DNA of 64,000 bases from Pseudomonadota bacterium (GTDB lineage: Bacteria > Bdellovibrionota > FAC87 > UBA2466): contig JAYSWN010000068.1 in the NCBI GenBank assembly GCA_043718025.1, positions 32,001 to 96,000 of the forward strand, in the 5' to 3' direction. Position 1 is the stretch's first letter; every line of letters begins with the position of its first letter. The position numbers and the translations under genes were made by a program. This document shows, piece by piece, positions 1 through 32,329 of the stretch. The notes below the pieces were generated by a model, which was not told where the DNA came from, did no database searches, and saw only the letters and a program-made list of their open reading frames with translations.

Positions 1-5
1 CTGTC

Positions 6-1826
6 ATGTCTTTGACGTGTGAAACCAAAGGGCCATACCTCCGGGTTTGGTTTGACACTCCCAATTCTGAAATTAATATTTTCGACCATCCTACCGCTGA
101 AGCACTAACCAAAATTTTGGCAATCGTTGACCCTAGGATTCACAAAGCGGTTCTGTTTCTTTCCAGCAAACCGGCAAGTTACATCAACGGAGTTGGGCTG
201 CTTTTGGCCAGCGCAATTAAGAACGCCGACGAGGCGATTAAGTTAACCGCACCCACTCGCCAGGCCTATCTAGCGGTTAAAAATTGCATTGTTCCAACGG
301 TGGCCGTGGTCAAGGGCAGCTGCTTTGGATGCGGAGTTGAATTCATTTCACATTGCACGTACCGGGTGGCCGTCGAATCATTAGAAACTACTTTCTACAT
401 GACAGAAATTCCTGAATACATTTTTGTTCCTGCATTCGGAGGCACTCAGCTTCTTCCCCCCCTGGTGGGCTTAGAGAAAGCTACCGATCTGATTTTGTGG
501 GGTGAAAAGTGGGACACGCCTACCGCGAAGAGATTTGGTCTGCTCAATGAAACTGTCCCTCTGCTGAATTGGGAACGAAATTTAGAAAAACTTTTGCCAA
601 AACTAATCGAAAAAAAAATGGAGAGAAAGAAAGCGCCGAAGAAGACGCACGAGTCTTTGTGGACCAAGACCGAAGGGCGCATTCTTTCGTTACCGCCTTC
701 CTACCAAAAACCGTATCATGACGCCTATCACCTACTCCAGATTGGCGCGGCGGCTGACGCTTTTAACGAACTCACTTCGCGACGAGAACTTAAGGCGTCG
801 ATGGAAAGCGTGATGCGAAACGAGAGCAAGATGGCGCTCTCATTTTTCTTTGTGCGACAGTCTGCTCGCCTGATTGCAGAAAAAGGGCGCCTCGATAACC
901 AACGGGCAATTCTAAATCTGCGATTGCCCAAGGCCGCTATGGCTTGGGGCAGGTCATTGGTAAACCAGGATCCCGAGAGCTTTAGCTTCAAACTTCAGAG
1001 TTACGTGCCCGGCCGGGCGGCTGGCGTTTTTCTTGAAACCGGAAACAGTGAGTCCATTCCCTTCTACGTAGGTAGCGCTCCTTTAAACCAAAGGCGAAAC
1101 GAAGTTCCCCGCCACGGCGTTTACTGGCCCGGCTATCAGAGCCAATGCAAACTGGTCGAGATCCGCAACGTGGTTTCACCCTTGGCCCGGGCCGAGGTGG
1201 CGTTTTGTTTCCATAAAATGGGTTTTACGACGGTAGTTTCCCACGGCGAAGGGGGATTTTTTCTAGACGAGCTGTGGAAAAATACGGTTGGGGGGTTGGC
1301 GTCTCTTTGTGAGCATTCGGTCTCTCCTGAGGAGGTCATCGAATCGCTGTGCGATTTTGGCTTCCTTGATTTTCCGGCAACTTGGGCCAAGCGCTTTGGA
1401 ACATCGCTTACTTCATCCATTTCAAGGGCGGCGGCCGGCAATCAGAGGAAGGATCCACAAACCGGAGACAAGGTGCGGGCTTGGGCGGAGCGTTTGCAAA
1501 AGTCTCCGCGGCAGGTCGCCAAGACGGGAACCAGCATTAACCCAATTGTCGTTAAAACCCTCGTGGCCTGGTGGATGAGTGTTGTGGTGAAAACGTTCTC
1601 GGATTCAAAGATCGCCCATTTGGCGTTTGCCGATGTGGCGGCCCGCGAAATGTTGGGTTTCCCCCTGTCGCACTTAAGTCTTTCGCGTTTTGCTACCAAG
1701 AAATGGCTTAGAAGCGAGGTGCTGGCTTCGCATGAAGTGCTAGGGCAATTGCCGCCGGAAGTGGCTGACCCTCTTCGCTATTACACTGATTTCGAAACGG
1801 TGCGATCGCCGCGTCAGAGATCGTGA
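6..1826 (+). CDS. Enoyl-CoA hydratase/isomerase (crotonase) domain protein with FadB/FadJ-like architecture and a degenerate C-terminal dehydrogenase region
   Basis: PTVAVVKGSCFGCGVEF...MTE...PAFGGTQLLPPLVG matches the crotonase core of FadJ/FadB, with both catalytic Glu kept. Later LVEI and GGFFLD remnants resemble 3-hydroxyacyl-CoA dehydrogenase, but there is no GxGxxG. Confidence 0.75.
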   Translation: MSLTCETKGPYLRVWFDTPNSEINIFDHPTAEALTKILAIVDPRIHKAVLFLSSKPASYINGVGLLLASAIKNADEAIKLTAPTRQAYLAVKNCIVPTVAVVKGSCFGCGVEFISHCTYRVAVESLETTFYMTEIPEYIFVPAFGGTQLLPPLVGLEKATDLILWGEKWDTPTAKRFGLLNETVPLLNWERNLEKLLPKLIEKKMERKKAPKKTHESLWTKTEGRILSLPPSYQKPYHDAYHLLQIGAAADAFNELTSRRELKASMESVMRNESKMALSFFFVRQSARLIAEKGRLDNQRAILNLRLPKAAMAWGRSLVNQDPESFSFKLQSYVPGRAAGVFLETGNSESIPFYVGSAPLNQRRNEVPRHGVYWPGYQSQCKLVEIRNVVSPLARAEVAFCFHKMGFTTVVSHGEGGFFLDELWKNTVGGLASLCEHSVSPEEVIESLCDFGFLDFPATWAKRFGTSLTSSISRAAAGNQRKDPQTGDKVRAWAERLQKSPRQVAKTGTSINPIVVKTLVAWWMSVVVKTFSDSKIAHLAFADVAAREMLGFPLSHLSLSRFATKKWLRSEVLASHEVLGQLPPEVADPLRYYTDFETVRSPRQRS

Positions 1827-1834
1827 AGGTTTCT

Positions 1835-1861
1835 TAACTTTTGCCCGCCAAATACCGATAG
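1835..1861 (+). promoter_or_regulatory. Putative sigma28 (FliA-type) promoter
   Basis: TAAC-N15-ACCGATAG versus consensus TAAA-N15-GCCGATAA, followed by RBS GAGGA (1871-1875) and GTG start at 1884. Confidence 0.55.
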
Positions 1862-1883
1862 GGAACATTAGAGGACCCTTATC

Positions 1884-4800
1884 GTGTTACAGCAAACCAC
1901 CGATACTGCGCAGGAAACTCTCCCTGCACTTGGCGAAAATCTTTCGCTGATGTGGGAGAGAATTTCCCGTTTCGCGCAATCTGATCCTAAAAGAGTCGCT
2001 TTGAGCCGTCTTTCGGCTCGCGGCGGTGAATTTACTGAAGACACTATCACCTACGGAAAATTGGAGCACGAAGCTCTCTCATTGGCGGTCTACTTTAAAT
2101 CGCGCGGCTACTCCAAGGGGTCGTGTGTTCTTATGCTCGTTGAAGACCCCATTGATTTTGTCACCACACTTCTGGGGTTAACCCGGGCGGGTCTGGTGCC
2201 GGTTCCGCTTCCTCCCTTTCGCGGATTCGGGCGGATGCCGGCTTTTGAAGAGCGCTTGCAGGGAGTGGTGCGAGTCTGCCGGCCATGCCTCGTGGTTTCC
2301 GATGACACTCATTCGTGGAAAAAGAACAAAGACGAGATGGTGGCGCAGATTCCCTGCGAACACATCAGTCACGTTCGCGCTGAGTCTCTCATCCGCGAGA
2401 AACTTAAGGAAGATCGTGACCTTCCCTTGCCCACCAAAGACGACATCGCCTTTTTACAATTCACCTCGGGGAGTACCGGAGAACCCAAGGGCGTTGTCAT
2501 CACTCACGAAAATTTAGCGGCCAATCTAACGGCGATGGGTCTGGCGACCGAATTTCGAGCCGATTCCGATCGTGTCGTGTCTTGGCTTCCTCTCCATCAT
2601 GACATGGGCCTAGTGGGAGGCCTGTTATTCCCCCTTTATTGGAAAGTGCCCACCTACTTGATGTCACCTTTGAACTTCGTGGCTCAGCCATCGAGCTGGC
2701 TCTGGGCAATTCACCGCTATCACGCCACGATGACGGTGGGCCCTAACTTCGCCTATTCAGTGTTGGTAAAGCGGGCTCCGGACTGGGAACTAACTGGTCT
2801 CGACCTTTCTACATTGCGCTTGGCTTTCTGTGGCGCCGAACCCATCGATAGCAAAGTGATTACCCAGTTCAATCGGCGATTTTCTGCCTTCGGAGTCCGT
2901 TCCAGCGCCTTCTTTCCGGTATATGGAATGGCCGAAGCCACGCTCGCCGTAACTTTTCCTCCGTTGAATCAAGAAGCAGTTTATGAAAACGTGAATCGGG
3001 CTCACCTCATTGAGAATGCCGAGGCCATCGTTTCTTTACAGGATTCTACCATTCCTTGCGTTTCTGTCGGCCAGCCTTTGCCAGGTCACAAGGTGAGCAT
3101 TCGCAGTTTAGAGACTGATGAAGTGCTTGGAGATCGAAAGGTCGGTGAGATCGTCGTGTCCGGCCCCTCGATCAGTCGCGGCTATTTTGGTTTACCGCTG
3201 CGCTCTGGAGAATTGAAAACCGGCGACATTGGCTATCAGGCCAACGGAACTCTTTTTGTTATCGATCGCAAGAAAGATCTGATCATCATTGCCGGTCAGA
3301 ACTATTATCCCTCAGATTTGGAGCGTCATCTGGCGATGGTGGCTGGCATTCGCACGGGACGAGTCGCCACTTTCTCAGTCTCTAACGGTAGCGAGATTGA
3401 AGAGCTGGTAGTCGTAGCGGAACTCGGCCCTCATTCCTTCTCGCAACGCGATCAGATCCGACGCGAAATTGAAGGTAAAATTCATGAAACGTTTGGTCTT
3501 TCGGTCGCAAAAATAATTTTCGTCATGCCTGGCCGTCTCCCCAAAACCACAAGCGGGAAGATTCGTCGGAAAGAGTGTGCCGAAATTTACGAACGCGGCG
3601 GATTCGCGAACCAATTTACCAAAGCACAAAGGGCATCACTGGCGGTTAAGAGCGGGCTTCGGCGTATCGTAATGCGACTCGTTCGCCTCAAAGCAGATGG
3701 CTGGAAACAGGTTTTCGACCAGGTCATGGAAGTCATCGAGTATTTTGTGCCGCCCGCGCTTCGCCAGGCCGATGCCGAGACCAAACGCCGCGCCAACTTG
3801 GTCGTCTTCTTTGCCTTTGCGGTTTCATTTTGGGCACCGGTATATGGCGCCGTATACGCTTTTGTATTGGAACTCCCGGTTGTTGGTTTCGCTATCTTGC
3901 TCGCCGGGGTCGGTGGCGCCGTGGTGCCGATATTGTTGCGCTTCACCGGGCGCATCAACCTTGCCGGTAATCTGTTAACCTTTCATTTGTTTTGGATCTT
4001 GTCTTACGCCGCGTGGTACAGCGGGGGACAAGGGTCGGCCCCTTTGATGTGGATGGTAGCGGTTCCCATGGTTGCCATTTGCATGTCCGGAACGAAGGCC
4101 GGAGTCCATTGGGGCGTAGCCGCCCTGGTCGAGCTTTTGGCCTTTTTTTGTTTCGATAAATTGGGCTGGGGAAGTCCACATGAATTGAGCGTGGATAAAG
4201 CGCGCTTTTTAAATACTTCGGTACTATGCGGATTGCTCACTTTGATTACTACGCTGACGTTGCTCTATGAAGCGATGAAAAAAATGGCAATGCAAACGAT
4301 CGAGGCCAACAATAAAGCGATCGCAAAGGGCCACGCTCGTTTGGGAGCCGTTTTAGATCACGCGCCAAACGGCATTGTTACCGTGGACCAGTTTGGCGCA
4401 ATCGAAACCAGCAATCGGGCTGCGGAGCAAATGTTTGGTTTCACGAGCGGCGAGCTTAAAGGAAAACCTTTCAATTCTTTGTTGGTGCGGCTTTCTCTAG
4501 TTCATGGCGAAGAGACAATCGAGGTGCCGGCTTTTCGCGATCTGTTCAAATCAGGCGGTAAACATTTTGAGGCGGTGGCCACCAACCGGGCCGGCAGCAC
4601 CTTTGCGGTGGAATTCGGGGTGAGTGAGGCTGCGCTCGACCATTGGCGAATTTATACCATCATAATTGAAGATGTTACTGACCGTAAGCGTGCGGGTATG
4701 GAGTTGTTGAGGGCAAAAGAAATTGCGGAGGCCGCAAATATAGCAAAATCTACGTTTCTTGCGAATATGTCGCACGAGCTGCGCACGCCGATGCACGGTA

Positions 4801-5462
4801 TCATCAGCTACGCCACATTCGGTCGGCGCGAATATCAAAAAGCATCTCCAGAAAAAATCTCGGGCTACTTTCAACACATTTTAGAAAGCGCCCACCGGTT
4901 GCTTAGTCTGCTGAATAATCTATTAGATCTTTCAAAATTCGAAGCTAATAAAATGAGATTTCAGCTCATCAAGGCAGATTTGGCACGGGTAGTGGAAATG
5001 GTTCATGGAGAATTGGCCGGCTACGCTAAAGAAAAAAGCGTGGAAATTTTATTCGAAAGACCAGCCAAACCGATAGCCTGTGCGTTTGATGACGAAAAGA
5101 TATCCCAAGTGGTCCGTAATCTGTTTTCGAACGCGATCAAATTTTCAAATCCGCAAACTGCGATTAAAATTGAAATTGGTTATACTGAACTGCCGCAGCG
5201 TGGAGTCTATTTTGCAATCACAAATCAGGGTGTCGGAATTCCCGCCAACGAATTAGAACTTATTTTTGATAAGTTTGTACAAAGCAGTAAAACCCATTCT
5301 GGTTCCGGTGGTACGGGCTTAGGCCTGGCGATATGCCGCGAAATTTTGAATGGGCATAAAGGCAAAATATTTGCGTCGAATGACAATGATGGACGAACCC
5401 GATTCACATTCATTCTACCTGCACAAGTTGAAGTCCTTGCAAAAAATCTGGAGGCAGCATGA
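1884..5462 (+). CDS. Fusion protein: fatty acyl-AMP ligase (FAAL) + multi-TM sensor domain + PAS + histidine kinase (HisKA/HATPase_c)
   Basis: FAAL motifs LQFTSGSTGEPKGV, SWLPLHHDMGL, YGMAEATLAV plus insertion, KTGDIG, PKTTSGK; 5-6 hydrophobic helices with SGG..SAP..W; PAS (NRAAEQMFGF); H-box ANMSHELRTP, N-box NLFSNAIKF, G-box GGTGLGLAI; all in one frame. Confidence 0.9.
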   Translation: MLQQTTDTAQETLPALGENLSLMWERISRFAQSDPKRVALSRLSARGGEFTEDTITYGKLEHEALSLAVYFKSRGYSKGSCVLMLVEDPIDFVTTLLGLTRAGLVPVPLPPFRGFGRMPAFEERLQGVVRVCRPCLVVSDDTHSWKKNKDEMVAQIPCEHISHVRAESLIREKLKEDRDLPLPTKDDIAFLQFTSGSTGEPKGVVITHENLAANLTAMGLATEFRADSDRVVSWLPLHHDMGLVGGLLFPLYWKVPTYLMSPLNFVAQPSSWLWAIHRYHATMTVGPNFAYSVLVKRAPDWELTGLDLSTLRLAFCGAEPIDSKVITQFNRRFSAFGVRSSAFFPVYGMAEATLAVTFPPLNQEAVYENVNRAHLIENAEAIVSLQDSTIPCVSVGQPLPGHKVSIRSLETDEVLGDRKVGEIVVSGPSISRGYFGLPLRSGELKTGDIGYQANGTLFVIDRKKDLIIIAGQNYYPSDLERHLAMVAGIRTGRVATFSVSNGSEIEELVVVAELGPHSFSQRDQIRREIEGKIHETFGLSVAKIIFVMPGRLPKTTSGKIRRKECAEIYERGGFANQFTKAQRASLAVKSGLRRIVMRLVRLKADGWKQVFDQVMEVIEYFVPPALRQADAETKRRANLVVFFAFAVSFWAPVYGAVYAFVLELPVVGFAILLAGVGGAVVPILLRFTGRINLAGNLLTFHLFWILSYAAWYSGGQGSAPLMWMVAVPMVAICMSGTKAGVHWGVAALVELLAFFCFDKLGWGSPHELSVDKARFLNTSVLCGLLTLITTLTLLYEAMKKMAMQTIEANNKAIAKGHARLGAVLDHAPNGIVTVDQFGAIETSNRAAEQMFGFTSGELKGKPFNSLLVRLSLVHGEETIEVPAFRDLFKSGGKHFEAVATNRAGSTFAVEFGVSEAALDHWRIYTIIIEDVTDRKRAGMELLRAKEIAEAANIAKSTFLANMSHELRTPMHGIISYATFGRREYQKASPEKISGYFQHILESAHRLLSLLNNLLDLSKFEANKMRFQLIKADLARVVEMVHGELAGYAKEKSVEILFERPAKPIACAFDDEKISQVVRNLFSNAIKFSNPQTAIKIEIGYTELPQRGVYFAITNQGVGIPANELELIFDKFVQSSKTHSGSGGTGLGLAICREILNGHKGKIFASNDNDGRTRFTFILPAQVEVLAKNLEAA

Positions 5463-7048
5463 GCAATGAATTGCCGAAACTTGGAAGTGTCTTGGTCGTC
5501 GATGACGATCCCCGTAACCTCGATATCATCTGCCATCTGCTGGAAGATCTGGTGAAGGAAGTGGTAACCGCAGCCGATGCTAAGGAAGCCATTCAAAAAT
5601 TGGAAACTTTCGATGCGGACCTGGGACTGTTCGACATCATGATGCCTGGCATGAACGGTTACGAACTTTGTCAGTTGGCAAAAGAGAAATATCCGCACCT
5701 TAAAGTAGTATTAGTTTCGGCCAAGGCCTCTTTAGAAGAACGCATGGCCGGCTATGACGTGGGGGCGGACGACTACATTCCCAAACCTTTCGATCACGAT
5801 GAGTTTATCGCCAAAGTACGGGTACTCATTAAACTGCAATTGGTTGAGAAGGAGCTGCGTCAATTCAACCAGGATTTAGAAACGCGGGTGCTGGAGCGTA
5901 CCCAAGAAGTACAGAACATGTACCAGCAGCTTCTCTTGTCATCGAAACTGGCTTCGTTAGGTGAGCTGTCGGCAAGTATCGCCCACGAAATTAACAATCC
6001 CCTTACCATTCTCAAAGGGAACGTTGATTACCTGCGCGAAGTGCTTGAAAAGAAAGGCTCTAAAGAACTGATTGCGGTTTTAGACCAACAAGACAAGGCG
6101 ATTGTGCGGGTGGTGAACATCATTCAGGGGCTTCGTCGCCATGCCCGCCACGATGACGCGGAAGTCGTTAGCTTTAATGTGCACAAATCAATTGAGGAGA
6201 CTCTTTCGTTGATTCGTCCCTTGCTCAGTGGCGACAACGTCGCGTTGGTTACGAATTTATCCGCCGATTCACCCTACACCCGGGGGGTTCCGACGCGATT
6301 TCAACAAATTCTGATGAATTTGGCGACCAACGCCCGTGATGCCCTTAAAGGAGTCGCTGGAGCAACAATTGAAATTTCTACCCGCAGCGTAAAAGACAAA
6401 TTAGAGATCGCGATCTCAGATAATGGCTGCGGCATTCCCGATCCAGTACGAAATAAGATCTTTGATCCGTTCTTCACGACCAAGGCAGTTGAACAAGGCA
6501 CTGGTCTAGGTCTTTCGATTGTGGGTTCGATTATTTCTGAAATGAATGGCACGGTGCAGGTGAGTTCGTCGCCCAATCGGGGGACCACTTTCACGCTATA
6601 TTTTCCCTGTCTTCGCTCGGAAGAGGTGCTGTTCCAAAAAGAGGCGGGGAGCGGGGCGGCCCCGGCCGAGATTCAGCTTAAAGGAAGAGTTTTGGTGGTG
6701 GAGGACGAAGAGGTGATTGCCCACTTGGTCAGTCGCTATTTGCAGGACCTGGGGTTAGACGTCTCCACGGTACTTAATGGCGAAGACGGTTTAGAAAAAT
6801 TGAAACACGAAACGTTCGATTTAGTTCTCACCGATATGCAGCTTCCCCATCTGAAAGGTAACGAGTTGGTGGCGGAAGCCAAGCGGCTGGGACGATGGGG
6901 TAAAACTCGGGTCGTGGCGGTTACCGGACAGGTCGATCCGGCGCTGGCGCCTAAGGATGGAAAAAGAGGGGTGGTTGGTTTTGACGGCCTGCTTTCCAAG
7001 CCGTTCTCGAAAGGCGATGTTTATGCGATCGTTCGAGACCTTTTATAG
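5459..7048 (+). CDS. Hybrid sensor kinase/response regulator (REC-HisKA-HATPase-REC)
   Basis: VLVVDDD..FDIMMPGMNG..DYIPKPF; SIAHEINNPL; FFTTK..GTGLGL; second receiver VLVVEDE..LTDMQLP..LSKPF. ATGA overlap with the upstream gene. Confidence 0.93.
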   Translation: MSNELPKLGSVLVVDDDPRNLDIICHLLEDLVKEVVTAADAKEAIQKLETFDADLGLFDIMMPGMNGYELCQLAKEKYPHLKVVLVSAKASLEERMAGYDVGADDYIPKPFDHDEFIAKVRVLIKLQLVEKELRQFNQDLETRVLERTQEVQNMYQQLLLSSKLASLGELSASIAHEINNPLTILKGNVDYLREVLEKKGSKELIAVLDQQDKAIVRVVNIIQGLRRHARHDDAEVVSFNVHKSIEETLSLIRPLLSGDNVALVTNLSADSPYTRGVPTRFQQILMNLATNARDALKGVAGATIEISTRSVKDKLEIAISDNGCGIPDPVRNKIFDPFFTTKAVEQGTGLGLSIVGSIISEMNGTVQVSSSPNRGTTFTLYFPCLRSEEVLFQKEAGSGAAPAEIQLKGRVLVVEDEEVIAHLVSRYLQDLGLDVSTVLNGEDGLEKLKHETFDLVLTDMQLPHLKGNELVAEAKRLGRWGKTRVVAVTGQVDPALAPKDGKRGVVGFDGLLSKPFSKGDVYAIVRDLL

Positions 7049-7775
7049 CTTTTCACAACCCTTACCCCCCCTACTCCAACTCGAGGAGGGCGAGGTTCAA
7101 GTGGTTCGTTTGAATATTGAGGAGCTGCGTCCTTTTCTGCGCGAGCTTCATGGCATTTTGACGCCTGAAGAACTTAAGCGCGCCACGCTCTTTCGCTATC
7201 CCAAAGATGGCGATGGCTTCATTTTGGTGCGTGGAGCGCTGCGGTTGATCTTGGGCCGTTATGCGGGGGTACACCCGCAAGAGATAGAGTTTGATCACAA
7301 CTCCCAAGGTAAACCGCGTCTGGTTAAGTCGCAAAACGACATGGGTCTGGAATTTAATGTCTCGTTTTCTGGTTCCATTGCCATTTACGCGTTTGCAAAG
7401 GGGATTTCCCTCGGAATTGATGTAGAGCAGCGCGATTCAAAACTAGATTTTAAAAGCGTAAAAGATCGGTTTTTGGACAAGATCGATTTCAATTTTTTGG
7501 AAGGGTTGCCGGAACTGCTCAAACGGGATGGCTTCTTTGCGTTGTGGACCCTGCGCGAGGCGGCCGCCAAAGCGGAAGGGGAAGGTATTTTTTTCAAAGC
7601 GGTAAACCGCCCCCTCCCACTCGATCACTGGACGGCAGTTTCCTTTTTTCCGGGCGCTGGTTACTCCGCCACTTTAGTGATGGAGCAGAAAGCCGAAGGT
7701 GGCAGCCGCCACGTTACTTTTTGGAGTTGGTCTAACACCGCCGTCGGCCTCTCGCACGGACCTGATCTTGAATAG
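7017..7775 (+). CDS. Sfp/HetI-type 4'-phosphopantetheinyl transferase
   Basis: GKP, FNVSFS, LGIDVE and WTLREAAAKAEGEG motifs. Start uncertain (6957, 7017 or 7023). Confidence 0.88.
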   Translation: MFMRSFETFYSFSQPLPPLLQLEEGEVQVVRLNIEELRPFLRELHGILTPEELKRATLFRYPKDGDGFILVRGALRLILGRYAGVHPQEIEFDHNSQGKPRLVKSQNDMGLEFNVSFSGSIAIYAFAKGISLGIDVEQRDSKLDFKSVKDRFLDKIDFNFLEGLPELLKRDGFFALWTLREAAAKAEGEGIFFKAVNRPLPLDHWTAVSFFPGAGYSATLVMEQKAEGGSRHVTFWSWSNTAVGLSHGPDLE

Positions 7776-7784
7776 GAGTTTTCT

Positions 7785-8912
7785 ATGCCCGAGATGATTA
7801 CCGAAAGACCCCGAATTCTTCTGGTGGATGACGAGAAGGAGATCGCCCAAGTGATCTCTCGCCTTCTGGACATTCATGGTTTTGATGTCACTCTGGCCCA
7901 CACCGCGCAAGAGGCGTTGGACAGTATGGAGACCCAACTTCCCGAGCTGGTGCTTTCCGATGTGGTGATGCCCGGCAAAGATGGTTATGCGCTCTGTGGA
8001 GAGATTCGTCGGCGCTATGAAGATAAAGTGGTTCCCATCATCCTGATTACGGGTAAGGACTGGAGCGGTGAACGGGCTCGTGGCCTAGAAGCCGGCGCTG
8101 ACGACCTCATTACCAAACCCATTGATAAGAATGAACTGCTTAACCGAATTCATTCCCTCGTAAAAATGAAAACGTTGCACGATTCCGTGGAGTCGCAAGC
8201 GCACAAACTTGCCGCCAAGGGGGCCGAACTCGAGACTAAAGTTAATGTGCAAACCAATCAGTTGGGTCAGCTAAAACGGTTTTTCTCCCCGCAGATTGCC
8301 GATTTTGTGCTTTCGCACGCTTCCGAAGCAGTTTTTCAATCGCGTCGAAAAGACGTAACCGTAGTTTTTTTGGATCTGCGTGGCTTTACCGCCTTCGCCG
8401 AAAAGGCGCTCCCGGAACAAGTAATGGAGGTTCTCGGTGAGTATTATGCAACCGCTGGCGATATCGCCCTTAAATTCAATGGCTCGATCGGTCGTTTGGC
8501 CGGGGATGGCATGATGTTTTTCTTGAATGATCCGGTTGAGATTCCCAACCACGCGGTGCGAGCGGTGGAAATGGCTTTGGCCATGCGCGAAGCCATGATT
8601 CGCTTGCGCGGCCAATGGGTTCCCAAAGGGTATGAGTTAGACTTTGGCATCGGCATGGCCACCGGCCGTGCCACTATCGGTGCCGTCGGCTTTGAGAAAT
8701 ATTGGGATTATACCGTCATCGGGTCGGTTACCAACTTGGCTTCCCGTCTTTGCGATGAAGCGAAATCGGGTCAAATTCTCGCTTCCGAGCGTTTTTTGGG
8801 CGATACCGCCAATGGTTTTCGCACCCAACCGTTGGGCGTCGTGCCGCTCAAAGGGTTTGGTAATCCGGTTAAGATCTTTAACATCTTGGCTAAAAAGACT
8901 GACGAAAAATGA
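7785..8912 (+). CDS. Response-regulator receiver + class III adenylate/guanylate cyclase
   Basis: REC (LLVDDE, LSDVVMP, ITKP); cyclase motifs FLDLRGFT, AGDG, DYTVIGSVTNLASRL; RBS AGGAG. Confidence 0.92.
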   Translation: MPEMITERPRILLVDDEKEIAQVISRLLDIHGFDVTLAHTAQEALDSMETQLPELVLSDVVMPGKDGYALCGEIRRRYEDKVVPIILITGKDWSGERARGLEAGADDLITKPIDKNELLNRIHSLVKMKTLHDSVESQAHKLAAKGAELETKVNVQTNQLGQLKRFFSPQIADFVLSHASEAVFQSRRKDVTVVFLDLRGFTAFAEKALPEQVMEVLGEYYATAGDIALKFNGSIGRLAGDGMMFFLNDPVEIPNHAVRAVEMALAMREAMIRLRGQWVPKGYELDFGIGMATGRATIGAVGFEKYWDYTVIGSVTNLASRLCDEAKSGQILASERFLGDTANGFRTQPLGVVPLKGFGNPVKIFNILAKKTDEK

Positions 8913-9655
8913 AAGCCCAACGTAAATTGAAGTTAGCTCCGCCGCCCGCAATTGCGGGGCAAGAGATCGTTCCCTCTCCTGGCGAAGATCGATTCATTCT
9001 CGCGGCGGCGTTAGTGGTTTCGTTTTCTGGCGTGGCCTACGAACTTCTGCTCGCTACTTATGCCACCTACCTATGGGGAGGTAGTATTTTCCAGTACAGC
9101 CTGGTTTTTTCGTCAATGATGCTTTCGATGGGGGTAGGCTCTTGGCTATCGGACCGCGGAAAGGCAAGCCCCGGCGTTCGCTTCGTCGTCATTGAATGCT
9201 TTTTGGCCGCGCTCGGGGTTGTTTGTTTGCCCTTGCTCTACACGGCATACTGGAAAGGCTTTGCCCCACTGTTTTTCACCTTCGGATTTAGCTTAGCTTT
9301 TGGCTTTTTAGTCGGGGTTGAAATCCCTTTATTAAACCGCTGGCTGGGGCGAGAGAAAAAAATCTCCGAATTATTGTCGGTCGACTTTGCCGGGGGCTTC
9401 TTAGGCGGAATCCTATTCCCCCTTTTTTTAGTTCCTCATCTGGGCCTTTTTCGCGTGGCGGCATTGGTCGCGCTGCTCAATGCAATGGTGGCCCTTCTGG
9501 GATCCAGGCTAGCGATAGTGCGCGCCGCAACTTCAATTCAAAAAAGCCATTGGCTTCAAGTCTTCGCCATTGCGGTCTGTCTTTTTGGGTTGGGATTTTT
9601 GTTTTGGGCCAATGAGATCCAAAGTTGGATGCAGTACCGCTTCTTTGGTTTCTAA
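8909..9655 (+). CDS. Membrane protein resembling the N-terminal TM domain of membrane-bound spermidine synthases (no catalytic domain)
   Basis: SGVAYELL, SMGVGSWL, LVGVEIPLL and D..GG.LGG.LFP.FL.P motifs; about 7 TM helices. Confidence 0.75.
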   Translation: MKAQRKLKLAPPPAIAGQEIVPSPGEDRFILAAALVVSFSGVAYELLLATYATYLWGGSIFQYSLVFSSMMLSMGVGSWLSDRGKASPGVRFVVIECFLAALGVVCLPLLYTAYWKGFAPLFFTFGFSLAFGFLVGVEIPLLNRWLGREKKISELLSVDFAGGFLGGILFPLFLVPHLGLFRVAALVALLNAMVALLGSRLAIVRAATSIQKSHWLQVFAIAVCLFGLGFLFWANEIQSWMQYRFFGF

Positions 9656-9666
9656 AAAGGAAATTA

Positions 9667-11250
9667 ATGCTCACGCCTTTGCAAATATATCTTCTCTGTG
9701 TCGCGGTCAGCGGTAGTGGCTTTGTCGCACAGACCCTCATTTCCGGATTTTGGTCCACGGTATTCAACGAGGATTCAGTCTACTACTCCGTAAATCTGGC
9801 TTTCTACTTCGGTGGCATGGGGGTTGGCAGCTTGATTGCCGGCTGGTTCGGAAAGGCTACGGAAAAGCTGGTGTTAAAATTCGTTTTGGCACTTCTCGTT
9901 TTGGTTGCCCTCATGATTCCATTGCTTCGGGTAGGCGTGAGCTGGCTCGGCAATCGGGAATTCCTCCCGCTGTTCTTAGTGATCGCAGCCGGAATCTTTG
10001 CCGGCGCAACTATTCCTTTGGTAATTCGACTTCGAAGTCGTGGCAATCAGACAAGCTTGGGTACCGTCTTTTTCTTAGATTACTGTTCGGCGTTTGTCTT
10101 TTCGTGCCTCTTTAATCTTTTCCTCTTGATGCGTTTGGGCTATCTGCAGACCGCTTGGCTTTGCTTTTTTGCGGGGTCTACTCTTTGTCTACCTGCGGTT
10201 TACCAATTGGGAAAAAGGAAGGGAGTCTTGGCCTATGTGACCTCGTTCGTCGTGGTCGCACTGACCTCCTATCTCCTTTCGTCCCACGGTATGAATCCGG
10301 ATCCCCAATCCCGGGCGGAATTTAAAGTGTTGGTTGATCGTCAGTCGCCGTATCAGAAAATTGTGATGACCGAAGAGATTGGCCACGGGTCTCTTTTTCC
10401 CGGCGCAATTCACCAGGTGATGTACTTAGATGGCATGGTGCAATTCTCGAGTCTCGATGAGACCAGCTATCACATTTGCTTAGCCAATATTCCAATCACC
10501 GCGGTTGAGTTCTTTGGGGGAAAACCTCGGCGCGCCCTTATCTTAGGCGGCGGCGATGGACTCGCCGCCCGAAATCTTTTGGCCTACCCCTCGGTTGAAG
10601 CGGTTAAACTGGTTGAGTTGGATCCGCTAATGATCAGTCTTGCTCAGCATGACCCCCATTTAGTTAAAATGAACGCCCGGTCATTCTACGATCCCCGTTT
10701 TTCGTACGTCGAGGGCGATGCCTTTCGGTGGATTAAGGAGAGCGAAGAGAAGTTTGACGTAATCCTTCTAGATTTTCCGCACCCGAAAAATTTATCGCTC
10801 GCACGTCTCTACTCAGCGGAATTCTATACTCAGTTAAAGAAACGATTGACCGCCGATGGTTTCATTTCGATTCAGTCGGGCCCAGCCTTTTCGCCGCAGG
10901 ATACTGAGCGCAACACGCTTAGCGAAATTTCATCCGCGATTTTGGAGACGGTGAGGAGGGCGGGATTGAAGGCAGAAATTTATTTGAGTCCGGCGGATCA
11001 AGAGGCCTTTGTGATAGCCACGGCTCGAAAGGATTTTGACATGAACCGTTTTGCTACGGCAATGAGCATGACCGGAGCTGATGGCCTGGGTTTTCTTTGC
11101 CAATTTATCCCGTCGTGGAAGCGGCCGCCGGCCAGCGTTAATACGCTAAATGATCTTTCGCTCGTGACTTACATGGACCGTTGGAATCGCGGTGGCGCCC
11201 GAAAAAATTACGACTTTAGGGGGTCGCGTTCCGTTTTCTTACCCCGTTAA
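9667..11250 (+). CDS. Membrane-anchored spermidine-synthase-like aminopropyltransferase/SAM-dependent enzyme
   Basis: TM N-terminus, then SPYQKI, YLDG.VQFS..DE..YH, LILGGGDG, VELDP, GDAF, DVILLDFPHP, LYS.EFY. RBS AAAGGA before ATG 9667. Confidence 0.85.
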   Translation: MLTPLQIYLLCVAVSGSGFVAQTLISGFWSTVFNEDSVYYSVNLAFYFGGMGVGSLIAGWFGKATEKLVLKFVLALLVLVALMIPLLRVGVSWLGNREFLPLFLVIAAGIFAGATIPLVIRLRSRGNQTSLGTVFFLDYCSAFVFSCLFNLFLLMRLGYLQTAWLCFFAGSTLCLPAVYQLGKRKGVLAYVTSFVVVALTSYLLSSHGMNPDPQSRAEFKVLVDRQSPYQKIVMTEEIGHGSLFPGAIHQVMYLDGMVQFSSLDETSYHICLANIPITAVEFFGGKPRRALILGGGDGLAARNLLAYPSVEAVKLVELDPLMISLAQHDPHLVKMNARSFYDPRFSYVEGDAFRWIKESEEKFDVILLDFPHPKNLSLARLYSAEFYTQLKKRLTADGFISIQSGPAFSPQDTERNTLSEISSAILETVRRAGLKAEIYLSPADQEAFVIATARKDFDMNRFATAMSMTGADGLGFLCQFIPSWKRPPASVNTLNDLSLVTYMDRWNRGGARKNYDFRGSRSVFLPR

Positions 11251-12242
11251 ATTTTTTCACATCGTAATCGCAGATTGATGGTCATATCGCTGTTTGGGTA
11301 GCGGAAGCTTGAGGTGATTTTCCGTTTTTCAAAAGGGGAGAGTCGGAGCACGTTGGGGCTTGGTTTTTCAAGATCACCCATTCTAAAGAGTGTTTCGCAC
11401 TTTTTCTCTACGGCCTCGTGGTTAATCACATCGTAATGCATTTCCAGCACCTGGGGTGCCCCTTCCAGCGTGAAGCGACAAAAGACACTTTCGGTCGAAG
11501 TCTTATTCTCGTTCGTGCAGCGAAATGAAGGGATCTTCGACTTCTCGCGAATGTCCAAATACAAGAAGGCAACGGTGGCTAAGCACCAGAGCAGGAAAAC
11601 GCGAACTGCAGTGGTACGCCCCTTTTCGCTCGGCCGGTGCCGAAGTATCCAGGGCTTAAGGGCAAGTCCAATTGCCAGCGAGAGAAGGCAAATGAACGCG
11701 GTAAAGAGAACTGAGTAGATCGGGCCTCTCATCCATTCCGCCCCGGGCATGCAGGTGCGGTGGATGCAATTCACATTTTGGTTTTCGGGAAAAAGCCAGG
11801 ACACGAAGAAGATCCCGGCGTGTACCAACGCTTGTTTTGGCGCCGGCAGCCAACGTTGATCTTTGGTGACGAATAGGTAGGTAATGCCCACCGGCAAAAT
11901 GTAAAAGTGATAGTGGCTCAGCAGGAATTCATCGGTCGGGTTGCCGGGCTGGTACATGAACTCAACCAACCCGAAGAGATTTCGGCCCGTAAAAATCCGC
12001 CAGAAGTTATCCGTGATCCAAAATGTTTGGGTCGCTAGGGCTACCGAAATCCAGCCGAGTCCCCATCCCCAGTGGTCAAATACCAGTACGGCTCCTATCG
12101 ACCCTAAACACAAATTACAGAACCACCAGTACATCCCTTCGTCCCAGCCATAACGCGTAAAACTCAAGTAGGTATTTGCGGCGGCCCAGAGGAGAAAAAG
12201 GTAGCCGATAGTTTTAAAAAACTGGCGTTGGGTGAAAGGCAT
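11247..12242 (-). CDS. Polytopic membrane protein with C-terminal soluble domain (WFCN...H...NVN pattern; possibly YwaF/TMEM164/ADTRP-like)
   Basis: 331-aa ORF with RBS GAGG next to the ATG and about 7 TM helices. Family call is inference only. Confidence 0.6.
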   Translation of the reverse strand: MPFTQRQFFKTIGYLFLLWAAANTYLSFTRYGWDEGMYWWFCNLCLGSIGAVLVFDHWGWGLGWISVALATQTFWITDNFWRIFTGRNLFGLVEFMYQPGNPTDEFLLSHYHFYILPVGITYLFVTKDQRWLPAPKQALVHAGIFFVSWLFPENQNVNCIHRTCMPGAEWMRGPIYSVLFTAFICLLSLAIGLALKPWILRHRPSEKGRTTAVRVFLLWCLATVAFLYLDIREKSKIPSFRCTNENKTSTESVFCRFTLEGAPQVLEMHYDVINHEAVEKKCETLFRMGDLEKPSPNVLRLSPFEKRKITSSFRYPNSDMTINLRLRCEKI

Positions 12243-12437
12243 CCTCTATTGTCCCACGACCTTCCCTTTTCCTCTGCTCTTCCATTAATATTCTATAAAT
12301 ACAATGATTTATCGAAAGAGTGAACGGGCGTATAAACTCTAGGCTGAATTTCTTTTTTGCTTTCAATGCTTAACGAAGCTGGCCCGCCGGGCCGTATAAA
12401 CCTTGGTCATAAGTCGCAAAGGTGGCCGCTGATCATA

Positions 12438-12453
12438 TGGCATCCGGTGTGCA
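12438..12453 (+). promoter_or_regulatory. Putative sigma54 promoter
   Basis: TGGCAT-CCGGT-GTGCA, with GG-N10-GC spacing. Confidence 0.5.
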
Positions 12454-12466
12454 CTCTATTTGTCAC

Positions 12467-13390
12467 ATGAACCGACAAAATTACTTTTCAGTACGACATC
12501 TTTTCTCTGTGGCACTGTGGTCGTTTTTGGCGATCGGGGTAGTGATGTCGGGCGGTTGTAACCAGGGGAGCAGTCGCTCCACTTTGGGTGACGACAAAAC
12601 CAAGGAAGATGTTTTCAAAGACTTTAATGACCTGGGCAATAATGGAAAAGGGAAGTCGCTCGGCGATATCGGGGCCGGTGGTGGTGTCGCGCAGCCTAAA
12701 CCTGGCAGCAATTCTGACGGCTCTTTCTCAGGATTAGACAAACAGGCGGTCAACAACGCCTACTCCGAAAACCAGCAAGTGGCCCCAACCGGCAAAATAG
12801 AGATTTTTACCGACGAGCTTAAGGCTCAAGCAAAAGAGATTTTGGCGCTCCAACGGCAAAAAAAGGACACGGCCGTAAAAAAACTTTTGTTCATGGCGGC
12901 AATGCTTAAGCGTTGCGGCGAAGTCGTGGCTAAATTCACCCCAATCGCGGGCCAGCCGTTGATGGGAAAGTGGAATGGACAAGGCGCTTGTAGTGTAAGT
13001 TTTGACGTGGCCGGAAACGGAGCCGGCGGTAAATACGCGGTTACCGGAGGCAGCAAGGGCACTTTAACTGCCGACACTCAGGGAAAAGGCGCGATTCAGG
13101 CCGATCCTTTCTCAGGTAACGTGGTGGACTCGCCGCAATCCGGAACCGGGCAGGTGGTCTATCCAGGTTTCTTCAAAACCAAAGCTGGGACGTCTGACTG
13201 TGTGCTCGGCATCCGCTTGGCCGAACCAACCAGCCCCATTCCGGCTAACTACAAAGAAGGCATGACCGTGATGGGTGCCTGCCTTCGTAATACGGCTCTG
13301 TTTATCAGTCCGGTGTTCGACAGGATGTTCCAGGACATGAATCCTGCCGTCTCTGAACAGCTACAAAAGAAGTTCTTAAATATTGAGTAA
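12467..13390 (+). CDS. Putative lipoprotein, unknown function
   Basis: Hydrophobic signal ending VMSGG-C, Gly-rich linker, further Cys residues. ATG 12467 preferred over GTG 12422. Confidence 0.7.
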   Translation: MNRQNYFSVRHLFSVALWSFLAIGVVMSGGCNQGSSRSTLGDDKTKEDVFKDFNDLGNNGKGKSLGDIGAGGGVAQPKPGSNSDGSFSGLDKQAVNNAYSENQQVAPTGKIEIFTDELKAQAKEILALQRQKKDTAVKKLLFMAAMLKRCGEVVAKFTPIAGQPLMGKWNGQGACSVSFDVAGNGAGGKYAVTGGSKGTLTADTQGKGAIQADPFSGNVVDSPQSGTGQVVYPGFFKTKAGTSDCVLGIRLAEPTSPIPANYKEGMTVMGACLRNTALFISPVFDRMFQDMNPAVSEQLQKKFLNIE

Positions 13391-31813: not shown

Positions 31814-32329
31814 ATGGAAATCAGTGTTCATTCGCTTCGCTGGGTAGAACGTCTTGCTGAACAAGAAAGTGGTGTTCAGGCTGGAGAGCGATCCCAGGTT
31901 GATCTCTATCAGGTGCGCGAAGACGTTCTACAGCTCGAGAGCTCCCAATTTTTGAAAGAACTTCGTACGACGCTCGAGACCCTATCGACCCTGTTCAATC
32001 AGCAGATGGCCGCTGACGAAACCAAGATTCAGCTTCAATCCTTATCCGAATCCCGCGATGGTTTTTACCTTTCCCGTCTAAATATCCGCATTCAGATTGA
32101 GTCAGCGCGGCCCGGGGTGATTCAGGTTCAGACTAAACGCATTGCGGTTGAGAACCCCATTCACCTTTCCACCGCAACTTTAGAAGCTAATTTTGGGGCT
32201 TTTGATGAGGTGACTTGGCTGTTTCTGGGAGAAAAAATTAACTCAGAGCAGGTGGCTCGCCATTTCTTAACTGAATTGGTCCAAAACACGATGCGGACCT
32301 CGCGTCCTTCAGCTCCTGCACAAAATTAG
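31814..32329 (+). CDS. Hypothetical protein
   Basis: ORF fills the gap after 6S RNA; no recognised family. Confidence 0.65.
   Translation: MEISVHSLRWVERLAEQESGVQAGERSQVDLYQVREDVLQLESSQFLKELRTTLETLSTLFNQQMAADETKIQLQSLSESRDGFYLSRLNIRIQIESARPGVIQVQTKRIAVENPIHLSTATLEANFGAFDEVTWLFLGEKINSEQVARHFLTELVQNTMRTSRPSAPAQN

Follow-up and report, generated by a model that had tools for sequence, protein, structure and literature searches.

The window, a stretch of 64,000 nt (positions 32001–96000 of contig C199 in genome G000), begins with seven open reading frames (ORFs) on the same strand, at positions 6–1826, 1884–5462, 5459–7048, 6957–7775, 7785–8912, 8909–9655 and 9625–11250. They belong to an operon in which a fatty acyl-AMP ligase (FAAL) is fused to a membrane-bound sensor histidine kinase (HK) and stands next to genes for a cytochrome P450, an acyl carrier protein (ACP) as well as a crotonase. 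Both the fusion and the linkage of these genes with the sensor are solid and as yet unexplained; the chemistry and the ligand discussed below are predicted. Labels beginning with G, L and P denote genomes, loci or records, and proteins, respectively, and records that repeat one stretch were counted once.

The spacing between the successive ORFs is 57, −4, −92, +9, −4 and −31 nt. Comparison with same-genus orthologues suggests that the phosphopantetheinyl transferase (PPTase) gene probably starts later, at position 7023, which reduces the overlap to 26 nt, and that the last gene also probably starts later, at 9667, leaving a gap of 11 nt. The domains displayed are, in order, ECH; AMP-binding, PAS, HisKA and HATPase; REC-HK-REC; ACPS/HetI; REC with a guanylate/adenylate cyclase domain; and two PRK03612-like sequences. 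The first-pass annotation had described seven co-oriented, closely spaced genes with these domains, and the ORF and domain analysis bears this out. It had also predicted an ACP and a ketosynthase upstream. Two further co-oriented genes are found 5′ of the window, a P450 gene and then an ACP gene that ends 64 nt before the crotonase gene, giving a nine-gene operon. The gene before the P450 is divergent, so the operon begins at the P450, and the predicted ketosynthase is rejected as an operon member. The features are as follows.

C199 30392–31636 (L001 18392–19636), outside the window, + strand: cytochrome P450; Pfam p450, E = 1e-50
C199 31636–31941 (L001 19636–19941), outside the window, + strand: dedicated ACP, 101 residues, Ser49; weak PP-binding and ACP matches
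1–5, + strand: end of the spacer that follows the P450 and ACP genes
6–1826, + strand: FadJ-derived crotonase, 606 residues; E112 and E134 retained, C109, shrunken dehydrogenase half
1884–5462, + strand: FAAL-sensor-kinase fusion; FAAL at aa ~25–575 (K559), basic linker, six-helix sensor at aa ~612–818, PAS, histidine kinase (H964)
5459–7048, + strand: REC-histidine kinase-REC hybrid; D59, K109 and H176 invariant in four loci
7023–7775 (longest ORF from 6957), + strand: Sfp/HetI-type PPTase; in the same place in G001–G003 and G313
7785–8912, + strand: REC-class III adenylyl cyclase; D59; D197, D241, T310, N317 and R321; Arg237 where CyaB has Lys
8909–9655, + strand: membrane protein like the PRK03612 N-terminal domain, below the family cut-off; passenger module
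9667–11250 (longest ORF from 9625), + strand: membrane spermidine-synthase-like protein; passenger module, occurs without the cassette

Positions 1–12500 of the window are matched without difference by one contig of run X1, a run that may be the source of the assembly and not independent of it. Scans for promoters and terminators gave numbers near chance (8 against 8.5; 24 against 18.1 ± 4.9). No RNA data set with this sequence was listed, a result that has no bearing on expression.

The ligase-kinase fusion and its membrane sensor

Five full-length fusions of FAAL, membrane domain, PAS and kinase were found, i.e. the window protein, P0002, P0003, P0004 and P0320, together with a partial one in L117 that is cut by the contig end. 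P0002, P0003 and P0004 display 79, 70 and 47% identity with the window protein across the junction, in a search with residues 400–900 in which 7995 candidates were scored. P0320 came from a second search that started from the 47% protein and missed the first three, thus these searches undercount. Open frames run across the junction in G002 and G003, and the linker aligns without gaps in the four fusions compared. The fusion is genuine. A frameshift or lost stop codon was considered as its origin and is rejected on account of P0320, the range of identities down to 47% and the difference-free contig across the junction. The long sensor-domain proteins P0192, P0300 and P0248 were considered as further fusions and rejected as tandem kinases; like P0217, each of them has a tandem of two kinase modules along with this membrane domain.

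The best matches of the ligase part are FAALs, with the E. coli FAAL (3pbk) first, and the insertion region aligns with them. The NCBIfam score is below the cut-off (384 against 600 bits). Adenylation motifs are retained and K559, which we take to be the catalytic lysine, is invariant. In the kinase part, His964 and the kinase boxes are invariant.

Residues 612–818 form six helices in a structural model with a pLDDT (predicted local distance difference test) of 95, so that both ligase and kinase come to lie on one membrane side. The sensor domain has no sequence match in PDB or NCBIfam. Its resemblance to the MASE6/7/8/11 sensor domains is weak: the MASE6 match is at E = 0.16 in the window protein and reaches 20.7 bits against a cut-off of 27.4 in two relatives, and its look-alikes in the Atlas carry several MASE families. 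In fold, the domain resembles the membrane modules of Rv1625c/Cya and of the mammalian adenylyl cyclases AC9 and AC5 (PDB 7yzi, 6r3q and 8sl3; Z = 16.0, 12.8 and 11.7); the next row that is not an adenylyl cyclase is at 8.1. The superposition on Cya has a root-mean-square deviation of 2.4 over 180 residues at 13% identity, and Foldseek gives E = 0.063 with a TM-score of 0.55. Unlike these cyclases, the module here drives a PAS-histidine kinase and adjoins a cassette whose predicted lipid product is a candidate ligand.

The six-helix kinases CqsS and LqsS have lipophilic autoinducers as ligands, and the cyclase module can be exchanged for CqsS (PMC4821796, in its accessible text). Cya has hydrophobic and charged pockets and its ligand is not known, according to the part of PMC9433096 that is available, and fatty acids and other lipids modulate mammalian membrane cyclases, as stated in the available part of PMC12414865. 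By analogy with these proteins, a lipid ligand for the sensor appears plausible.

The P450-ACP-crotonase-FAAL cassette

The crotonase belongs to a family of ~48 proteins that forms a clade apart from FadJ in a quick tree of 48 rows. Over its length the best sequence and fold matches are FadJ and the alpha subunit of the trifunctional enzyme (TFE-alpha), with a TM-score of 0.67 to 6ysv. It shares with these the overall fold and both hydratase glutamates, as E112 and E134 are invariant in 46 members and align with those of FadJ. Unlike FadJ, it has a constant ACP neighbor, altered oxyanion loops and no dehydrogenase domain of the active type. An invariant C109 replaces the oxyanion-loop Gly, the first oxyanion loop is altered, the dehydrogenase half is shortened, and the position of the catalytic His is not kept. 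These residue roles are presumed. There is no Pfam 3HCDH match in the crotonase and the FadJ family score is 103 bits against a cut-off of 869. A longer FadJ-type paralogue is present elsewhere in the window's genome. The first-pass annotation had compared the operon with a system containing RpfF and RpfB; an equivalence of the crotonase and the ligase to these two is not supported: the crotonase is FadJ-derived and the ligase is an ACP-type FAAL.

The cassette is widespread. Among metagenome sequences 73 of 74 loci were counted, the weakest, L182, being left out. An ACP of one family is upstream of the crotonase in 68/68 loci with at least 250 nt of upstream sequence, and its Ser49 is invariant among 74 aligned members. 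Of the 36 loci that have 1500 nt upstream, 34 contain a P450, a diiron-type enzyme or a radical SAM (S-adenosylmethionine) enzyme; a FAAL is present in 29 of the 33 with 600 nt downstream. The best solved relative of the P450 is no better than E = 2e-23. Among genomes, the distribution of the crotonase family is patchy. It was found at E ≤ 1e-60 in four of 401 genomes of the window's phylum, plus the fragmented G003; 9/401 genomes of a Myxococcota sample (the phylum of G401) carry the cassette, and the family is also present in 1/201 of the phylum of G402. Named strains of Pyxidicoccus and Myxococcus have crotonase members. By analogy with FAAL and with AasR/AcpR, in both of which the ligase loads a cognate ACP (for the latter, in the available text of PMC9386255), the gene set has the layout of a pathway that tailors ACP-tethered fatty acids. 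No description of the cassette or of the FAAL-kinase fusion was found in the literature covered, beyond which lie most subscription papers and all supplements. The window's genome has one other PPTase besides the operon copy.

Several variants of the cassette occur. L157, L159–L163 and L165–L167 (e.g. L165 8228–9660) have a probable ferritin-like diiron protein instead of the P450 and a shorter crotonase, and most of these loci also have a START/SRPBCC protein; the diiron motifs were recognized by eye, with only a weak R2-like match. A B12-type radical SAM enzyme precedes the ACP in L032, L135, L140 and L143 (e.g. L135 8022–9740), and a chemosensory cluster is 3′ of the FAAL in L032 and L135. 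Two same-genus genomes have a 275-aa gene between crotonase and FAAL (L031 1642–2475; L026 734–1555) that is methyltransferase-like by eye and has no family match; G313 and L032 have a short-chain dehydrogenase/reductase (SDR) in that place. L114 6239–10670 shows the cassette followed by a different sensor set, a seven-transmembrane (7TM) kinase and a REC-kinase, with a FadL-type transporter before the cassette.

Nine loci and four Myxococcota genomes have a small secreted protein near the cassette (e.g. L155 6350–6862; L213 13849–14475), with a weak lead (below 0.9 in the Atlas) to allene-oxide-cyclase/dirigent barrels. Next to the P450, two small proteins without annotation occur repeatedly (L124, L125, L131, L156; L133, L144, L145, L155). 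They have no family match and presumably resemble STAS/SEC14-like and DUF2378-like small-ligand domains.

Linkage of cassette and sensor and its possible meaning

The linkage is kept in three of three same-genus genomes (G001–G003), and L031 displays the operon from crotonase to cyclase at 48–77% protein identity. In G313, which belongs to another family, the order is P450-ACP-crotonase-SDR-FAAL, followed by a separate membrane-PAS kinase, a REC-PAS-HK-REC protein and the PPTase. The sensor kinase gene of G313 overlaps the FAAL stop codon by 7 nt (a boundary read from the assembly). P0171 is a second unfused orthologue of the sensor kinase with its own start. All nine cassette genomes of the Myxococcota sample have a hybrid kinase with the same domain directly after the FAAL (in G801 across a contig break), and this kinase is the best match among 6, 5, 2 and 5 paralogues in G726, G411, G506 and G801, as ranked with a profile built only from fused proteins, i.e. 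from the window's lineage and close loci. Conserved synteny had been proposed as a check of the operon, and it extends to another family and, for cassette plus sensor, to a second phylum.

Gene content and order, the fusion, the folds, the retained catalytic residues and the linkage in two phyla are the elements shown here. We favor, with a probability of roughly 0.55, a make-and-sense lipid system, in which the cassette makes a modified fatty acid, the sensor kinase senses it and the response ends in a phosphorelay. The PPTase would prime Ser49 of the ACP, and the FAAL would load a free fatty acid onto this dedicated carrier to give acyl-ACP. The P450 would then oxidize the tethered chain, and the crotonase would dehydrate (or hydrate) it and free the product, as RpfF does with 3-hydroxyacyl-ACP. 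The released lipid would probably bind the six-helix membrane module, upon which phosphate would move from His964 to Asp59 in the hybrid kinase. His176 could then serve its own C-terminal receiver or the receiver of the cyclase, and in this genus the output would be cyclic AMP. That the cassette product is the signal is something we infer. Since ligase and kinase share one membrane side, synthesis would be kept at the receptor by virtue of the fusion. A bolder version is doubtful, yet a real possibility: P450 and repurposed FadJ would make a diffusible, oxylipin-like molecule from an ACP-tethered fatty acid, to be read by the six-helix receptor, with synthesis and perception coupled in one protein. 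This would be an undescribed quorum- or prey-sensing signal of predatory and sediment bacteria.

Like the diffusible signal factor (DSF) system RpfF/RpfB/RpfC/RpfG, the locus combines a ligase and a crotonase that works on fatty acyl chains with a multi-helix sensor kinase and a cyclic-nucleotide enzyme. RpfF acts on 3-hydroxyacyl-ACP and cleaves the thioester, and the CoA ligase RpfB serves to turn over the signal, according to the accessible text of PMC9864630. Unlike DSF loci, the operon has a private FAAL, ACP, PPTase and oxygenase with a ~600-residue FadJ-derived crotonase in place of the single-domain RpfF type. The ligase differs from RpfB in being of FAAL type and fused to the sensor, and the output differs from RpfG in being a REC-HK-REC protein plus adenylyl cyclase, not a phosphodiesterase of cyclic di-GMP. 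Of four features examined for DSF membership, only the two catalytic glutamates are present; RpfF-type crotonase, RpfB-type ligase and cyclic di-GMP phosphodiesterase are not. The earlier proposal of DSF-like logic with different parts stands as to a lipid-making unit beside a membrane kinase, a logic shared with CAI-1 signalling (PMC4821796, available text); membership of the DSF family does not stand.

CqsA and LqsA are synthases dependent on pyridoxal phosphate (PLP). Unlike their systems, the cassette has no such synthase inside it; paralogues of PLP-dependent synthases are present in all five genomes searched, none of them in the cassette. The likeness to CqsA/CqsS and LqsA/LqsS is one of design, i.e. 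a six-helix, short-loop receptor on a histidine kinase for which a lipophilic ligand would be expected (PMC4821796, available text). As in AasR/AcpR of rhodobacterial sphingolipid synthesis, the ligase would load a dedicated ACP with free fatty acid (PMC9386255, in the part accessible); unlike there, the cassette has no serine palmitoyltransferase and has an oxygenase and a crotonase instead.

Several observations weigh against the make-and-sense system. Of the 37 cassette loci in which the sequence extends past the FAAL, only 13 carry the sensor and 24 lack it, a count that takes in loci with the FAAL end plus 450 nt and includes near-duplicates and L139, which rests on a short match. Sensor-linked loci come from few lineages, so that counts overstate their independence, and the nine genomes of the Myxococcota sample look like kin. 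The sensors of the two phyla each form one group and are not sisters in the best tree (approximately unbiased (AU) test, p = 0.054), nor are the sensor-linked crotonases of the two phyla (AU p = 0.27), in quick trees of 38 of 178 sensor rows and of 48 crotonase rows. A single origin of the link is neither shown nor rejected by these trees; the link may be ancient and have been lost in places, or the sensor may have been recruited repeatedly. If sensors of one family were recruited more than once, this in itself would suggest a functional fit. The membrane domain is common (2275 representatives) and its modeled fold, although shared, does not identify a ligand. A cation-binding pocket is also found in Cya (PMC9433096, available text), and no ligand site is mapped on mammalian cyclases in the accessible part of PMC12414865. 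The cassette has no recurrent thioesterase or acyltransferase, so release by the crotonase is only assumed, and no exporter was observed. Binatia-type loci are flanked by glycosyltransferase, desaturase, SDR and metallo-hydrolase genes, which fits envelope-lipid modification.

Other explanations were weighed. The kinase may read incoming free fatty acids, e.g. from prey, or turnover of the fused ligase, and switch on modification of the cell's own lipids with no released signal. The single polypeptide with both enzymes on one membrane side agrees with this, as do the FadL-type outer-membrane transporters that adjoin the cassette in G313, where cassette and transporter face each other, and in the near-duplicates L114/L115. 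Ligases of the AasR type serve to salvage free fatty acids by attaching them to a dedicated ACP, in the available text of PMC9386255. An unfused sensor still lies next to the cassette, however, so its membrane domain can function untethered, and nearby there is no recurrent acyltransferase to use the product. On balance such substrate or flux sensing seems unlikely. The idea that the cassette product is a structural lipid or a small metabolite, with the kinases as general regulators recruited nearby to sense something unrelated (stress, ions), is unlikely. It would account for the sensor-free loci, the envelope genes of Binatia-type loci and the other signalling genes that vary by locus (7TM kinase, chemosensory cluster, LuxR, GGDEF), and it gains from the lack of an established single origin. 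It has to contend with a sensor of the same family that directly follows the FAAL in two phyla, where it matches better than the other paralogues, and that forms one protein with the enzyme in six or more sequences.

An origin of the fusion in misassembly, or in neutral read-through between neighboring genes that have no functional link, is highly improbable. Read-through would be an easy event, given that the basic tail at the ligase end is like that of stand-alone members and that FAAL and kinase genes overlap in G313, but fusions as distant as 47% identity with a gapless linker, and an identical contig spanning the junction, argue against it.

Known lipid quorum systems are pairs of synthase and sensor. 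The chemistry of a make-and-sense system of the kind favored here would differ, relying on FAAL, ACP, oxygenase and a remodelled FadJ. Some lineages combine the biosynthetic enzyme and the sensor kinase in a single polypeptide. The four-gene cassette is in itself an uncharacterised lipid pathway. Whether six-helix modules of the cyclase type are lipid receptors is an open question in the available text of PMC4821796, PMC9433096 and PMC12414865; since one comes here with a candidate ligand pathway, the question becomes testable. An oxylipin-like signal, if real, would give an orphan receptor fold a natural ligand.

Downstream and neighboring genes

The REC-kinase follows the sensor kinase in the genus, in L110 and in G313. 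No histidine phosphotransfer (HPt) protein is encoded in the operon, which suggests a direct kinase-to-receiver cascade.

The cyclase carries the class III catalytic residues, as aligned to CyaB (3r5g), their roles being those we presume for the class. The Lys that would specify adenine is replaced by Arg237 in the window and kept in G001–G003, whose orthologues show 73–82% identity. All four genomes of the genus have the gene as part of the operon, and the window's genome has nine cyclase-domain matches in total, this one included. Neither the operon of G313 nor the Myxococcota loci contain it. The cyclic nucleotide output suggested by the first-pass annotation would be a genus-level addition.

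The last two genes, a PRK03612-like pair with scores of 144.8 and 298.9 bits against a cut-off of 472, are probably co-transcribed with the operon here. In the spermidine-synthase-like protein the second Asp of what we take to be the amine-binding acidic pair of aminopropyltransferases is replaced, as it is in most relatives shown; L225 keeps it. At E ≤ 1e-20, 17 of 41 genomes have this two-gene module, among them 9/21 same-family genomes outside the genus. The cassette crotonase was not seen in those nine, and cassette genes were within 1.5 kb of the module at none of eight loci examined outside the genus. As the two genes travel without the cassette, the polyamine decoration once suggested for the product is unsupported.

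The module at 8909–13390, which is also found in L222–L229, consists of the membrane protein, the spermidine-synthase-like protein, a convergent membrane protein (11247–12242) and sometimes a 322-aa protein (12422–13390). The latter two have no Pfam or NCBIfam match, and the module spans family and order.

At the other end of the operon, a hybrid kinase with a receiver and a receiver protein are encoded at C199 27865–30574 (L001 15865–18574, minus strand), divergent from the P450. A divergent hybrid kinase is in the same place 5′ of the P450 in G001, and it may belong to the same circuit.

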